The translations under genes were made by a program, and so were the position numbers. A stretch of DNA of 64,000 nt from Planctomycetota bacterium (lineage in GTDB: Bacteria; Planctomycetota; MHYJ01; WSZJ01), in NCBI GenBank assembly GCA_038060895.1, contig JBBTCT010000022.1, positions 64,001 to 128,000 of the forward strand, written 5' to 3'. Shown in pieces: positions 4,314 through 30,756 of this stretch. Position 1 is the stretch's first letter, and the number at the start of each line of letters is the position of its first letter. Under the pieces are notes generated by a model. The model searched no databases. It saw nothing but the letters and a program-made list of their open reading frames with translations, and was not told the DNA's origin.

Positions 4314-5120
4314 CTACCGGCAAGCCGCCGCTTCCGCCATCCGCTTCTTCGCCCTCTGCATCCCCAGCACCGCTGCGCCGAGGGCCGCCGCGAACTGCGG
4401 GTGCTCGGGGAGGTTCACGGGGATGGCGAACTTGCGTTTGCAGGCCTCGACGAAGCCGCTCTGAAGAGCGACGCCGCCGACGAGGGTGACGGGACCGTTC
4501 AGGCCGACTTTTCGCAACTGCCCCACGGCGCGGTCGGCCATGGACTCGTGCATGCCGCGGGCGATGTCGCCGATCGGGACGTTCTCGGAAACGTGGTTGA
4601 TGATTTCGGACTCCGCGAGGACGGCGCAGACGCTCGAGATCGGCTGGATCCCTTTCGCGTCGACGGAGAGCTTGCCGAGCGAATCGAGCGGAACCTCAAG
4701 GTACTTCGCGGCCCGCACCAGGAACGCCCCGCCGCCGGCCGCGCACTTTTCGTTCGTGTGGAATTCCTTCACCTTGCCGTTGTCGCGCAGGTGGATCGCG
4801 CGGGTGCTCTGCGCGCCCACGTCGAGGACGAAGGAGGCTTTGGGGAAGAGCGTCCACGCGCCGCGGGCGGCGGCGGTGATTTCGGTGACCTGGATGTCGC
4901 GGAAGGTGACGGCGTAGCGGCCGAGGCCCGTCGTGCAGGTGTAGGCGACGTCGGAAGGCGACACCTTTGCGAGGGCAAGCGCCTCGTCCAGCACGTCGCG
5001 CGCGCCCTTGTCGAAGTCCGCGCGCGTCTTGGTGATCGCGCGCGCGAGCACCACGCCGTCGTCGCGGTAGAGGACGGCCTTCGAGAAGCCGCTTCCCAGG
5101 TCAATTCCCGCGCTGATCAT
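4314..5120 (-). CDS. bcrD: BadF/BadG/BcrA/BcrD ATPase (activase subunit of class I benzoyl-CoA reductase, BcrD/BzdP-like)
   Basis: [47 protein letters not shown]-coupled to the upstream gene. Symbol assigned from position. Confidence 0.8.
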
Positions 5121-5968
5121 CGTTTCGTGTCCTGAAGGCCGTCTTCCCACCCGCCGAGCACCGCTTCCTCGCACTTGCCCCTGGAAGCGGTTTCCGCGCG
5201 TTCGAGGGCGAAGAGTGCGGCGCCGATGGCGCCCATGTAGTGCGAATCCGCGCTGATGTTCAGGGGCGCCTTCAGTTTTTCCTCGAGGGCGGCGACCATG
5301 CCGACGTTGCGGGTGACGCCGCCGGTCATGGAGTACTCGGGGCCCAGGCCGATGCGCTGGAGGAGGGACATGGTGCGCGCGGCGATCGCGCGGTGGACGC
5401 CGGCGAGGATGTCGGGGACTTTCTTTCCCTGCGCGAGGTAGGACATGATGTCGGATTCGACGAAGACGGTGCAGACGGTCGAGAGGCGGACGGGGTCTTT
5501 TCCTTCGAGGGCGAGCGGGCCGATCTTCTCCAGCGGAAGGTCGAGAACCTCGGCGGAGGCCGACAGGAAGCGGCCGGTGCCTGCGGCGCACTTGTCGTTC
5601 ATGGCGAAGTCGACGACTTCACCATTTGCGCCGACGCGGATCGCCTTGGTGTCCTGGCCGCCGATGTCGATGACGGTGCGGGTGCCGGGGAACATGAAAT
5701 GGGCGCCGCGGGCGTGGCAGGAGATTTCGGTGACCTGCGAGTCGCCGAACGTGACCTTGTAGCGGCCGTAGCCTGTGCCGATGACGTAGCCGATCTGCTC
5801 GCGCTTGAGTCCCGACGAGGCGAGCGCTTCGTTGAACATCTTCTCCGCGGCTTTCGACACGTTTGCGCCGGTCATTGCGAGCGCCCGGCCGACGATTTCG
5901 CGATTGGAGTCGAGGATGACGGCTTTGGTCTGCGTGGACCCGACATCGACGCCGGCGCCGTAGATCAT
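5117..5968 (-). CDS. bcrA: BadF/BadG/BcrA/BcrD ATPase (activase subunit, BcrA/BzdQ-like)
   Basis: [50 protein letters not shown]. Symbol assigned from position. Confidence 0.85.
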
Positions 5969-28427: not shown

Positions 28428-28948
28428 GCCTTCTCCGCGCCTTTGAGGAACGCCTGCCGGTTCGCTTCGACCGCTTTCGGCGGCGAGAGCTTCTCGAGGG
28501 CGGCGAGCAGGGAAGCGCGCGCCGGGAAGGCGCCAGGCGCGGCGGTGGACGAGAAGCCGAGGAGTGCGATGTTCGCCGCGCGGGTGGCGTTCAGCTCCCG
28601 GGCGATCGCCGACGCGTCGAGCGACCGCGCGCCTTCGGCCGCCGTCGCGTTCACGAAGCACGCGCCGCCTTCGCGCAGGAACGACCGCGCGTCCGCCAGC
28701 CGGGTCACGTCGATCGCGACCGTCACATCGGCTTTCCCGCGGCGCACCAGCGGCCCCTCGAACCCGCCGATCTTCACATGCGACTCGACGGCGCCGCCGC
28801 GCTGGGACATCCCGTGCGTCTCGCTGACGATGGCGTCGCGTCCCTCCATCTCCGCCGCTTCCGCGAGGAGCCGAGTGACGAAGAGAATCCCCTGGCCGCC
28901 GAGGCCGAAGATGACGATCTGGGAACGCGTCGCGGCGGCGGCGATCAC
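28424..28948 (-). CDS. iorB: Indolepyruvate:ferredoxin oxidoreductase beta subunit
   Basis: GLGGQGIL, SETHGMSQRGGAV, ANIALLG, N..AF..G; GTG start overlaps the iorA stop. Confidence 0.88.
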   Translation of the reverse strand: MIAAAATRSQIVIFGLGGQGILFVTRLLAEAAEMEGRDAIVSETHGMSQRGGAVESHVKIGGFEGPLVRRGKADVTVAIDVTRLADARSFLREGGACFVNATAAEGARSLDASAIARELNATRAANIALLGFSSTAAPGAFPARASLLAALEKLSPPKAVEANRQAFLKGAEKA

Positions 28949-30756
28949 GTGAGCGGGACCTCCTTCTTCAGCGGCAGGATCGCGTCGGACGGGCACATGT
29001 ACACACACTGGCCGCAGTCGATGCACTTCGTATGGTCGATCACCACCTTCCCCGTCGCCCGGTCCTTCACGAGTCCCGGGCACTCGCACATCTTGAGGCA
29101 GTAATCGCACCCGTCGCACAGTCCCGAGTCGATCTCCACGGGCGTCCGGACCTCGGGCGGCTGGTAGAGCGCGCAGGGACGCCGCGCGACGACGACTGCG
29201 ATCCCGCCCTCGGGTTCCTTCGTCCAGGCCCGCGCTTCCTTGAGAATCGCGATTCCGCCCTCGACGTCGTACGGGTCCGTCGTCCGGACCCATTTGACGC
29301 CCACGGCCCGGCAGATGGCCTCGATGCTCGCGCCGGCGTCCGCGGGCGTCGGCTGCGCGCCGGTCATGGCGACGATGCCGTTGTCGGAGACGACGCAGAC
29401 GAAGCGTGCGCGGGCGGCGACGGCGTTGAGAAGGGCGGGGATGCCGCTGTGGAAGAACGTGGAGTCGCCGATGATCGCGACGATCGGGATGTCTTTTCCA
29501 TCGAGCCGGTGCGCGCGCCAGAAACCTGTCGCCATGGTGATCGACGCCCCCATGTCGAGGCAGGTGTCGATCGCGCGCTGGTTGGTGCCGAGCGTGTAGC
29601 AACCGATGTCGCCTGCGAAGATGGCGCCCGGCATCGCCAGCTTGAGCTCGTAGAAAACCGAACGATGCCCGCACCCCGGGCAGAGGCGGGGGGGAAGCGG
29701 CGCCGACGGCGGCGCGGGGGGCGGCGGCCGGCAGCCGAGGAGGCGGGCGACGACCTCGGGGGTCAGCTCCCCGTGCCCGGGCACGTGGCCGGTCAGCCGT
29801 CCCTGGACATCGCGCCGGTCCGGGATCTGCATCTCGATCGCAGCATCCGGCTCCTCGATGACGAGCACGCGGTCGTGGCGCGCGACGAAGCGCGTGACGA
29901 GGCCGAGGGGAAGCGGGTACGGGGTCCCGATGCGGAGGACGGGGATGTCGAGCCCTTCTTCGGCCAGGACGTCGCTCACGGCGGCGGCCACGCAACCGCC
30001 GGCGATGATCCCGAACGGCGTCGGCCGCGGGTCTTCGACATTGAACGGCGACGTCTCGAACTCCGCGCGGATCGCCTCGAGCTTCGCGTTGAGCTCCGCG
30101 TGAAGCGGCAGCCGGAACCGCGGCGTCGCGGCCCAGCGTTCGGGGTCCTTCGAGAATTTCGCCGGCCGCGGCCGCCGGTCGAGCGGCCCGGCATCGATCG
30201 CCTGCCGCGAGTGGCAGACGCGCGTCGTCGGTCGCAGCAGGACCGGGAGCCGGTGCCGCTCCGACAATTCCATTGCCGCCATCGCCATCGCCCGCGCTTC
30301 CCGCGGTGTCGACGGGTCGAACACGGGGGTCTTCGCGAAGATCGCGAAGAGCCGCGTGTCCTGCTCCGTCTGCGACGAGTGCGGCCCGGGGTCGTCGGCT
30401 GCGACCACCACGAAGCCGCCTAGGCATCCGGTGTAGGCCGCCGAGAGCAGCGAGTCGCTCGCGACGTTCAGACCGACCTGCTTCATTGCCACCGCGGTGC
30501 GCTTCCCGCACATCGACGCCGCCAGAGCGACGTCGAACGCGATCTTTTCGTTCACGGACCATTCGGTGGCGACTGCGGCGCCGAGGGCGTCGCGCTGGCG
30601 CACGATCTCCTCGAGGATCTCGGTGCTGGGCGTCCCGGGGTACGCGGTCGCGACCTCGCAGCCGGCCTCGATCAGGCCGCGCGCAATGGCGCCGTTGCCG
30701 AGAAGGACTTCCCGGGCAGGCGCCGAAGTCTGTTTCAGGGACGTGTCGGGGTCCAC
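28945..30756 (-). CDS. iorA: Indolepyruvate:ferredoxin oxidoreductase alpha subunit
   Basis: LLGNGAIARG, YPGTPSTE, NEK, MKQVGLNVA, SSQTEQD, LCPGCGH, GDIGCYTL, GDSTFFHSG (TPP), two C-terminal ferredoxin motifs. Confidence 0.93.
   Translation of the reverse strand: MDPDTSLKQTSAPAREVLLGNGAIARGLIEAGCEVATAYPGTPSTEILEEIVRQRDALGAAVATEWSVNEKIAFDVALAASMCGKRTAVAMKQVGLNVASDSLLSAAYTGCLGGFVVVAADDPGPHSSQTEQDTRLFAIFAKTPVFDPSTPREARAMAMAAMELSERHRLPVLLRPTTRVCHSRQAIDAGPLDRRPRPAKFSKDPERWAATPRFRLPLHAELNAKLEAIRAEFETSPFNVEDPRPTPFGIIAGGCVAAAVSDVLAEEGLDIPVLRIGTPYPLPLGLVTRFVARHDRVLVIEEPDAAIEMQIPDRRDVQGRLTGHVPGHGELTPEVVARLLGCRPPPPAPPSAPLPPRLCPGCGHRSVFYELKLAMPGAIFAGDIGCYTLGTNQRAIDTCLDMGASITMATGFWRAHRLDGKDIPIVAIIGDSTFFHSGIPALLNAVAARARFVCVVSDNGIVAMTGAQPTPADAGASIEAICRAVGVKWVRTTDPYDVEGGIAILKEARAWTKEPEGGIAVVVARRPCALYQPPEVRTPVEIDSGLCDGCDYCLKMCECPGLVKDRATGKVVIDHTKCIDCGQCVYMCPSDAILPLKKEVPLT

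Follow-up and report, generated by a model that had tools for sequence, protein, structure and literature searches.

The closest described system is the iaa cluster (iaaA-R) of Aromatoleum aromaticum EbN1 and Aromatoleum evansii, which converts indoleacetate anaerobically into 2-aminobenzoyl-CoA. The 2012 work of Ebenau-Jehle reportedly places a molybdenum (Mo) hydroxylase in this cluster as well. Schuhle et al. 2021 (PMC8360864) describe IaaF as a benzylmalonyl-CoA dehydrogenase that decarboxylates its substrate and belongs to a subclass in which GGG replaces the catalytic YEG in all members, all of them encoded in iaa-type operons. Accessions cited for such reference proteins are WP_011236983 (IaaF of A. 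aromaticum EbN1) and WP_012966786 (IaaF of F. placidus) in PMC8360864, and Q5P602 (IaaC) and Q5P600 (IaaE) in PMC8453981. PMC8360864, citing Schuhle et al. 2016, also places IaaF orthologues in iaa-type operons outside the denitrifiers too, in strict anaerobes (Desulfatiglans anilini, other sulfate reducers, Ferroglobus placidus), whose operons are said to carry a dedicated non-bifurcating electron-transfer flavoprotein (ETF). Here we describe a locus at positions 4314-30756 of a 64,000-nucleotide stretch of Planctomycetota DNA (the window; positions 64,001 to 128,000 of contig JBBTCT010000022.1, C22 below, assembly GCA_038060895.1), which is best read as a tryptophan-fed variant of the described iaa pathway that is linked to a divergent class I aryl-CoA reductase, and not as a new pathway.

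The IaaF, IaaGH, IaaL and IaaCE families are common to the window and to Aromatoleum. The window differs in having neither the AMP-forming indoleacetate-CoA ligase IaaB nor the periplasmic binding protein IaaM. Entry would be via IorAB, the indolepyruvate:ferredoxin oxidoreductase (IOR), translationally coupled to the hydroxylase, and the gene set is enlarged by a PhlA-like/DUF35 fusion protein with an SCP-x thiolase, a V4R protein, a RidA protein and an ADP-forming acyl-CoA synthetase. An aryl-CoA reductase of its own adjoins the module, and the host is a Planctomycete. This reductase has the same four-subunit make-up, in bcrCBAD order, as the Thauera-type BcrCBAD and the MbdONQP (PDB 9g87) enzymes. 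As in the archaeal thiolase/HMG-CoA synthase (HMGCS)/DUF35 complex (6esq/6et9), PhlACB (5m3k) and BbsAB (7pxp), the SCP-x thiolase is paired with DUF35 and KAS III/HMGCS-like parts, but in the window the HMGCS/PhlA-like and DUF35 parts are fused in one protein and stand in a degradative context.

Results

Since the window is GC-rich (0.58-0.74), genes were called by third-position GC (GC3), and the calls were then checked against Pfam and NCBIfam. These scans found every enzyme family that the first-pass annotation, made from the sequence alone, had named, and at the places where it had put them. The genes form three compact operons (Table 1), one on the minus strand in the order bcrCBAD (8628 to 4314), one on the plus strand running from the fusion protein through the acyl-CoA dehydrogenase (9414 to 20390), and one on the minus strand running from IorA through a DUF4920 protein (30756 to 22172). 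The outer limits coincide exactly with gene ends: the last reductase gene stops at 4314 and IorA starts at 30756. Overlaps of 1-4 bases, as in co-translated operons, are found at many adjacent gene junctions.

The acyl-CoA dehydrogenase (ACAD) at 19266-20390 carries LLIGGGTSEI aligned opposite the IYEGT(S/N)EI of solved ACADs. The GGG is present in this protein and in 120 of 120 homologues among the matches listed, two of which bear the JGI name 'benzylmalonyl-CoA dehydrogenase'; in the window's own genome it occurs in one of six ACAD matches, the 19266-20390 protein only. True 5-oxoprolinase, methylmalonyl-CoA mutase (MCM) and the HcrABC-type hydroxylase had been named at first as the rival subfamilies, and none of the proteins reaches an NCBIfam equivalog cut-off for them: the mutase reaches 493 bits of the 876 required by the MCM equivalog, the Mo subunit of the hydroxylase 578 of 995 for 4-hydroxybenzoyl-CoA reductase (4-HBCR) alpha, and the hydantoinase-like pair 618 of 1000 (CapA, alpha) and 310 of 1000 (CapB, beta) for caprolactamase, while the NCBIfam library scan of the window proteins returned no 5-oxoprolinase model.

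The mutase, split over separate small and large subunit genes, is also distinct from MCM in its solved relatives, the large subunit matching HcmA (2-hydroxyisobutyryl-CoA mutase) best, with 471 bits against 399 for human MCM. It retains the RQYAGF Tyr and an Arg that aligns with the one in EFMVR of MCM, whereas the solved 2-hydroxyisobutyryl-CoA mutase does not. These positions bind the substrate carboxylate in MCM, and their retention fits a carboxylated (aryl-succinyl or benzylmalonyl) substrate. Two further mutase paralogues in the genome are merely 47% identical to this one. At the family level, CoA_transf_3, Hydantoinase_A and Hydantoinase_B occur together in the same translationally coupled operon. 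The solved relatives of the 438-residue fusion protein are PhlA (9skh, 5m3k), ChsH2-DUF35 (6ok1) and the archaeal HMGCS and DUF35 proteins (6esq), all weak matches of 27-41 bits, and it is presumed to be the partner of the thiolase. For the SCP-x thiolase, whose solved relatives are SCP2-thiolase, the archaeal thiolase 6esq, BbsB (7pxp) and PhlC, we propose the role of a 3-oxoacyl-CoA thiolase yielding 2-aminobenzoyl-CoA and acetyl-CoA.

A pattern scan of one genome per species, made with an alignment of GGG-type dehydrogenases, gave 438 confirmed loci, of which the best 80 were analysed; none of these 80 comes from a cultured iaa organism. Window proteins were compared with them by tblastn (E <= 1e-10, more than half of the query covered), and 43 of the loci are at least 15 kb long. 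The mutase was found in 39 (MutS) and 36 (MutL) of these 43 long loci, and its small and large subunits in 56 and 49 of all 80. The lactamase pair follows (HyuA 32/43 and 38/80; HyuB 31/43 and 39/80), with the hydroxylase (Mo subunit 30/43 and 43/80, 2Fe-2S subunit 24/43 and 32/80, FAD subunit 21/43 and 27/80) and the family III CoA-transferase (30/43 and 41/80). IorA and IorB occur in 20 and 19 long loci (24 and 22 of the 80), V4R in 15 (19 of the 80), the SCP-x thiolase in 13 (21 of the 80) and the fusion protein in five (seven of the 80). Reductase genes were matched in five (ATPase), three (BcrB) and three (BcrC) long loci, the counts for the two ATPases not being independent because both queries match one gene in several loci. 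The ADP-forming synthetase has a match in two of the 80 loci, and RidA in three, all close relatives at 96-98% identity.

The nearest relatives (L001, L002 and L009; dehydrogenase 93-94% identical) have the layout of the window. In the Chloroflexota loci L024 and L011, IorAB, hydroxylase, CoA-transferase, IaaF, mutase, lactamase, BcrC, BcrB and ATPase lie on a single strand. Identities to the window proteins fall into two classes across the 80 loci, 25-32% or 49-72% for the CoA-transferase and, for the lactamase, 36-44% or 54% and more (HyuB). V4R goes only with the window's class of lactamase: 17 of the 19 V4R loci have a HyuB-like gene, always at 64% identity or more.

Further partners were sought by clustering the open reading frames (ORFs) of the 80 loci, using a home-made caller and a Pfam scan of one representative per cluster; because this caller missed the window's own CoA-transferase and HyuB, the resulting counts are lower bounds. 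Families that are not in the window cluster include short-chain dehydrogenases/reductases (SDRs; at least 35 of the 80 loci), class I/II aminotransferases (at least 33), MaoC hydratases (at least 30), VOC/glyoxalase proteins (at least 22), classic thiolases (at least 22) and 3-hydroxyacyl-CoA dehydrogenases (at least 12). The VOC/glyoxalase partner may be, and this is a guess, an epimerase for benzylmalonyl-CoA enantiomers, comparable to methylmalonyl-CoA epimerase. No AMP-forming ligase was seen among the annotated families common to at least two of the 80 loci (clusters 38, 40, 41 and 42 were left unannotated), and none is present in the window, the seven PF00501 matches of the genome all lying outside C22:64001-128000. 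The first reading of the locus, an iaa-type tryptophan/indoleacetate pathway that leads to 2-aminobenzoyl-CoA and is combined with IorAB and a class I aryl-CoA reductase, is supported by the GGG signature, the rival cut-offs that are not reached and the recurrence of the gene set.

Could such a module act on another substrate, a different lactam-forming N-heterocyclic or aromatic acid, with IorAB and the reductase belonging to a general aromatic amino-acid or aryl-CoA island? All the enzymes score below equivalog cut-offs, and the two sequence classes of lactamase and of CoA-transferase hint at functional diversity. Against this stands the GGG subclass of dehydrogenase, reported only from iaa operons in PMC8360864. 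A carboxylate-retaining mutase combined with a decarboxylating dehydrogenase would fit an aryl-succinate derived from the indole-3-acetate skeleton, not, for example, quinoline or indolepropionate. Also, the stop of IorB overlaps the start of the hydroxylase, and IorAB accompanies the module in 19-20 of the 43 long loci. We therefore regard a different substrate as very unlikely. Two other candidates were rejected: benzylmalonyl-CoA biosynthesis for a polyketide, as no polyketide synthase is present among the genes scanned, and quinoline-type substrates, for which the mutase and the decarboxylating dehydrogenase would be unneeded.

The aminotransferase partners, the lack of an AMP-forming ligase and the overlap between IorB and the hydroxylase gene together argue that in these lineages the module receives its substrate from tryptophan, by transamination and IorAB, and not from external auxin via an IaaB-type ligase. 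IorAB shows the expected domain set, an alpha subunit with thiamine pyrophosphate (TPP) and 4Fe-4S domains and a small beta subunit, although both score below the IOR cut-offs (Table 1). What happens to the indoleacetyl-CoA that IorAB would deliver is a separate question. The first-pass annotation had it released as free indole-3-acetate (IAA) with gain of ATP, and in the corresponding alternative the Mo hydroxylase and the lactamase have free IAA as their true substrate, the synthetase either releases IAA with ATP gain or activates external IAA, and the CoA-transferase activates free (2-aminophenyl)succinate with succinyl-CoA. The synthetase does share its tightly packed operon with IorAB and the hydroxylase; Pyrococcus ACS2, according to PMC3942289, uses indoleacetyl-CoA and is proposed to work alongside IOR; and Aromatoleum IaaL, according to PMC8360864, also performs intermolecular CoA transfer with succinate. 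A MarR-family regulator lies beside the operons, and regulators of this family control aerobic auxin loci, according to PMC9613470. The MarR protein of the window (8546-9103), however, gives only weak generic matches to solved MarR proteins, without specific likeness to any solved regulator, and has no match in the 80 related loci. The synthetase is confined to two of the 80, being missing at that position in the close relatives L002 and L009, and a thioester that is made, hydrolysed and made again brings no gain unless succinyl-CoA is free. The later papers of the Heider group put activation to indoleacetyl-CoA first and speak of '2-oxoindoleacetyl-CoA gamma-lactamases'. The passage through free IAA is thus unlikely, and as an obligatory step it is not upheld. 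Given the rarity of the synthetase and the literature on CoA esters, the direct CoA-ester route is favoured, though not settled, over the detour through free IAA, and the synthetase would be an accessory that may serve for salvage of free indoleacetate or for gaining ATP from surplus aryl-acetyl-CoA.

The reductase operon encodes two different BcrAD-type ATPases and two HGD-D subunits. Among solved proteins the BcrB-like subunit matches MbdO of 3-methylbenzoyl-CoA reductase (9g87) best, at 291 bits, ahead of HadB (166) and BzdO (99). In contrast to the Thauera-type enzymes, all four subunits stay below the Bcr equivalog cut-offs (Table 1), and the BcrA-like subunit is short, with 283 residues whose match spans only positions 231-432 of the 432-position BcrA model. 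By these comparisons the reductase represents a class I lineage of its own, related to but separate from the Thauera-type enzymes, and its substrate is presumably 2-aminobenzoyl-CoA. The three operons might instead be neighbours by chance, the 'reductase' being a 2-hydroxyacyl-CoA dehydratase with its activators that would act, for instance, on indolelactate. Dehydratases indeed share HGD-D subunits and BcrAD ATPases with such reductases, with HadB and HadC matches of 196 and 213 bits, and the reductase operon is divergent from the iaa operon, with the regulator between them. Yet the operon has two distinct ATPase genes in bcrCBAD order, the BcrB (320 bits) and BcrC (294 bits) matches exceed those to the Had models, as does MbdO over HadB among solved proteins, and in Chloroflexota this set of four genes directly adjoins iaa genes on one strand, with an Oah-like gene following. 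A chance neighbourhood is therefore extremely unlikely, and the operon is read here as an aryl-CoA reductase.

A possible continuation lies on the same contig. Upstream of the window by 11-13 kb, and at a distance of 15-17 kb from the reductase, the block at C22:50882-53401 (L097 6882-9401) holds the genome's best Oah-like and Dch-like genes on either side of an SDR gene. The former encodes an Oah/BadI/MenB-like crotonase of 361 aa (202 bits to TIGR03200), the latter an enoyl-CoA hydratase (163 bits). The SDR and enoyl-CoA hydratase pair is a candidate for the beta-oxidation of 2-aminocinnamoyl-CoA or for ring processing, and so for the hydratase and dehydrogenase that the cluster does not have. 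Five other genomes with the cluster have exactly one Oah-like match each (E <= 1e-30). In four of these genomes it lies 1.4-5 kb past the reductase genes, and in the fifth about 15 kb away from the cluster, whereas 14 control genomes gave no match at the same threshold. This recurring neighbourhood of reductase and Oah-like genes supports a chain from the iaa module through ring reduction to hydrolytic ring opening.

Some 10 kb from the cluster lie an RnfC-like and an RnfD/NqrB-like gene (Table 1). A ferredoxin:NAD oxidoreductase would bear on how ferredoxin is balanced between IorAB and the reductase; further Rnf subunits were not found near 41-46 kb, where eight scanned ORFs have no Pfam match.

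Table 1. Genes of the cluster and of its surroundings in the window
Feature	Coordinates	Strand	Evidence and remarks
BcrD-like ATPase, aryl-CoA reductase	4314..5120	-	Pfam BcrAD_BadFG; NCBIfam benz_CoA_red_D 162 bits (cut-off 313); ATG at 5120 overlaps upstream stop
BcrA-like ATPase	5117..5968	-	Pfam BcrAD_BadFG 231 bits; benz_CoA_red_A 212 bits (cut-off 578); BzdQ 187 bits
BcrB-like catalytic-module subunit	5965..7260	-	Pfam HGD-D; benz_CoA_red_B, cut-off 487
BcrC-like catalytic-module subunit	7279..8628	-	Pfam HGD-D from residue 105; benz_CoA_red_C, cut-off 421; candidate starts spread over 8262-8628
MarR-family regulator	8546..9103	-	Pfam MarR/MarR_2; between reductase and iaa operons
PhlA/HMG-CoA-synthase-like thiolase-fold and DUF35 OB-fold fusion	9414..10730	+	Pfam OB_ChsH2_C, residues 360-420; NCBIfam HMG-CoA synthase 53 bits
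SCP-x-type thiolase	10727..11899	+	Pfam Thiolase_N/Thiolase_C_1; PRK06157 405 bits (cut-off 403); BbsB 205
B12-binding small mutase subunit, IaaH-like	11896..12324	+	Pfam B12-binding; TIGR00640 133 bits
Acyl-CoA mutase large subunit, IaaG-like	12273..13862	+	Pfam MM_CoA_mutase 610 bits; MCM equivalog below cut-off
Family III CoA-transferase, IaaL-like	13862..15034	+	Pfam CoA_transf_3 420 bits; below every NCBIfam equivalog cut-off
Hydantoinase A-like, ATP-binding lactamase subunit, IaaC-like	15099..17150	+	Pfam Hydant_A_N/Hydantoinase_A/Hydant_A_C; CapA below cut-off
Hydantoinase B-like subunit, IaaE-like	17147..18787	+	Pfam Hydantoinase_B 598 bits; CapB below cut-off
V4R-domain protein	18784..19269	+	Pfam V4R; translationally coupled between lactamase and dehydrogenase
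IaaF-type acyl-CoA dehydrogenase	19266..20390	+	Pfam ACAD domains; GGG motif
DUF2249 and cupin protein	20442-21146	+	Pfam; between operons 2 and 3; in 0/80 related loci
HEAT-repeat protein	21234-22040	+	Pfam; between operons; in 2/80 related loci
DUF4920 protein	22172-22612	-	Pfam; in 1/80 related loci
Fused ADP-forming acyl-CoA synthetase	22609..24729	-	Pfam CoA_binding_2/Succ_CoA_lig/ATP-grasp_5; TIGR02717 383 bits (cut-off 567)
RidA/YjgF-family protein	24680..25066	-	Pfam Ribonuc_L-PSP
Xanthine dehydrogenase (XDH)-family hydroxylase, Mo (molybdopterin-binding) large subunit	25053..27251	-	Pfam Ald_Xan_dh_C, MoCoBD_1, MoCoBD_2; 4-HBCR alpha below cut-off; XdhA 575 bits (cut-off 780)
Hydroxylase 2Fe-2S small subunit	27217..27654	-	Pfam Fer2, Fer2_2
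Hydroxylase FAD-binding medium subunit	27651..28427	-	Pfam FAD_binding_5, CO_deh_flav_C; start overlaps IorB stop
IorB, indolepyruvate:ferredoxin oxidoreductase beta	28424..28948	-	Pfam POR; matches IOR-family models of NCBIfam, the best at 138 bits and none reaching its cut-off (IOR_beta 94, cut-off 206)
IorA, indolepyruvate:ferredoxin oxidoreductase alpha	28945..30756	-	Pfam POR_N, TPP_enzyme_C, Fer4; TIGR03336 IOR_alpha 608 bits (cut-off 651)
Fic-like protein	1362-2456	-	Fic-like_C/HATPase_c_4
HTH and IrrE/M78 peptidase protein	2555-3721	+	
409-aa protein	30824-32053		Upstream of IorA, same strand; no Pfam/NCBIfam match; in 0/80 related loci
SufT/PaaD-like DUF59 protein	32047-32385	-	Upstream of IorA, same strand; in 0/80 related loci
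976-aa beta-propeller protein	32757-35687		
1348-aa protein	35932-39978		Cytochrome c motifs; weak hydrazine-synthase-alpha middle-domain match (23 bits, below cut-off)
RnfC-like protein	40208-41542		Complex1_51K, SLBB, 4Fe-4S
RnfD/NqrB-like protein	42769-43683		
Polar amino-acid-type ABC transporter	59027-61148		Family-3 solute-binding protein, permease, ATPase
AAA/GAF/Fis-HTH regulator	61348-63207		After the ABC transporter

Other genes in the window

The DUF2249 and cupin, HEAT-repeat and DUF4920 genes (20442..22612) are outside the conserved set. Near the left edge of the window, the Fic-like and HTH-peptidase genes look like mobile or defence-type genes. GC falls to 0.577 at window positions 52001-54000, against 0.64-0.74 around, and no gene was called by GC3 between 51716 and 54614.

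Discussion

Taken as a whole, the locus probably encodes an oxygen-independent route in three modules, from tryptophan-derived indolepyruvate to ring-reduced products. IorAB would oxidatively decarboxylate indolepyruvate to indoleacetyl-CoA and reduce ferredoxin. For the iaa module, family membership was found in the scans, and the chemistry proposed here is that of Aromatoleum. The XDH-family Mo enzyme would hydroxylate C2 of the indole to give an oxindole, the ATP-dependent hydantoinase-like pair would open the lactam to a (2-aminophenyl)succinyl thioester, and the family III CoA-transferase would shift the CoA to the other carboxyl. The split B12 mutase would then rearrange the product to (2-aminobenzyl)malonyl-CoA, which the GGG-type dehydrogenase would oxidise and decarboxylate to 2-aminocinnamoyl-CoA. 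A hydratase and a dehydrogenase encoded elsewhere, followed by the SCP-x thiolase with its PhlA-like/DUF35 partner, would lead to 2-aminobenzoyl-CoA and acetyl-CoA. The four-subunit, ATP-dependent reductase of the Bcr/Mbd type would dearomatise the aryl-CoA, possibly with ferredoxin reduced by IorAB, and ring opening would fall to the Oah-like hydrolase block, which lies on the same contig at a distance of 15-17 kb.

Several observations weigh against this route. The aminotransferase, the hydratase and the 3-hydroxyacyl-CoA dehydrogenase are not in the cluster, as the first-pass annotation had already remarked; matches to crotonase, 3-hydroxyacyl-CoA dehydrogenase-like, class I/II aminotransferase and MaoC models all lie outside C22:64001-128000. 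No MaoC hydratase scores above the cut-off in the genome (86.5% complete), though MaoC and SDR genes so often accompany the module in related loci, and 2-aminocinnamoyl-CoA must therefore be hydrated and oxidised by enzymes whose genes lie outside the cluster; several sets of crotonase, 3-hydroxyacyl-CoA dehydrogenase and thiolase are found elsewhere in the genome. The genome has 13 class I/II aminotransferases, and its best match to the aminotransferase of the relatives' clusters is only 28-33% identical. No ETF gene is present in the cluster, in contrast to what is said of the strict-anaerobe operons, and the sole EtfAB pair of the genome is on contig C31; for IaaF of Aromatoleum the electron acceptor is not known, according to PMC8360864. 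Orthology to the Iaa proteins would follow from one motif, from cut-offs and from synteny, and two homologue searches, one with the window dehydrogenase and one with that of a 'Deltaproteobacteria' metagenome-assembled genome (MAG), gave no named cultured iaa organism among the matches listed. The four reductase subunits, IorA and IorB, the synthetase and the hydroxylase are all below NCBIfam equivalog cut-offs, so that their substrates are not fixed by sequence. IOR enzymes also take phenylpyruvate and 4-hydroxyphenylpyruvate. About 15 kb of unrelated genes (aldolase, kinase, Fic-like, HTH-peptidase-like) separate the Oah-like block from the reductase. Finally, an operon for an aa3-type cytochrome c oxidase (subunits II, I and III; C22:44172-48048, L097 172-4048) indicates that the organism is not a strict anaerobe, and it is probably facultative or microaerophilic.

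A bolder joint reading can be put forward, although we think it quite unlikely. IorAB, the iaa module, the Mbd-type reductase and the Oah-like set would make up a self-contained and widespread system for complete anoxic mineralisation of tryptophan in uncultured phyla of groundwater and soil (Planctomycetota, Chloroflexota, Methylomirabilota/Rokubacteria, Acidobacteriota). Ferredoxin reduced by IorAB would feed the reduction of the ring, which depends on ATP. Reduction of 2-aminobenzoyl-CoA would yield an enamine, and its hydrolysis, possibly with RidA, would lead directly to the substrate of Oah, so that the Dch and Had steps known from the textbook benzoyl-CoA pathway would be bypassed.

The host had been placed at first among the Planctomycetes-Verrucomicrobia-Chlamydiae bacteria, and this agrees with the nearest named relatives of the dehydrogenase among the matches listed, Planctomycetota MAGs at 85-94% identity labelled Planctomycetia or Brocadiia. 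Within Planctomycetota, a match to the dehydrogenase (E <= 1e-100) is found in 19 of 401 sampled genomes and 16 of 288 genera, the window's genome counted. All three other genomes of the window's genus match, and the trait is patchy inside the phylum. Across phyla it is widespread, and the best 80 of the 438 loci include Chloroflexota, Rokubacteria/Methylomirabilota, Acidobacteriota, Actinomycetota and Myxococcota. DNA of the locus occurs mainly in groundwater and aquifer runs. Contigs from two RNA libraries of one aquifer sample, X9 and X12, cover 24 and 21 of the 30 bins into which 9414-29413 was divided, mostly with at least 99% identity. This coverage is no proof of transcription, because a DNA run from that study has a similar, low depth and there is no silent control stretch.

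Our literature search found no paper on a Planctomycete iaa cluster; Schuhle 2016 and the Ferroglobus work, which lay outside the reach of that search, may already describe IOR-linked iaa clusters. In the literature read, biochemical study of anaerobic indoleacetate degradation concerns two Aromatoleum species. The locus and its relatives, 438 stretches in the scan, suggest that the same chemistry is common in uncultured subsurface bacteria, and that in these relatives the pathway is usually tied to tryptophan, via IorAB and an aminotransferase, and not to auxin via a CoA ligase. They would also give a physiological context, 2-aminobenzoyl-CoA formed from tryptophan, to a large class I lineage of aryl-CoA reductases on which we found no biochemical study, and they point to Planctomycetes as anaerobic degraders of aromatic amino acids.

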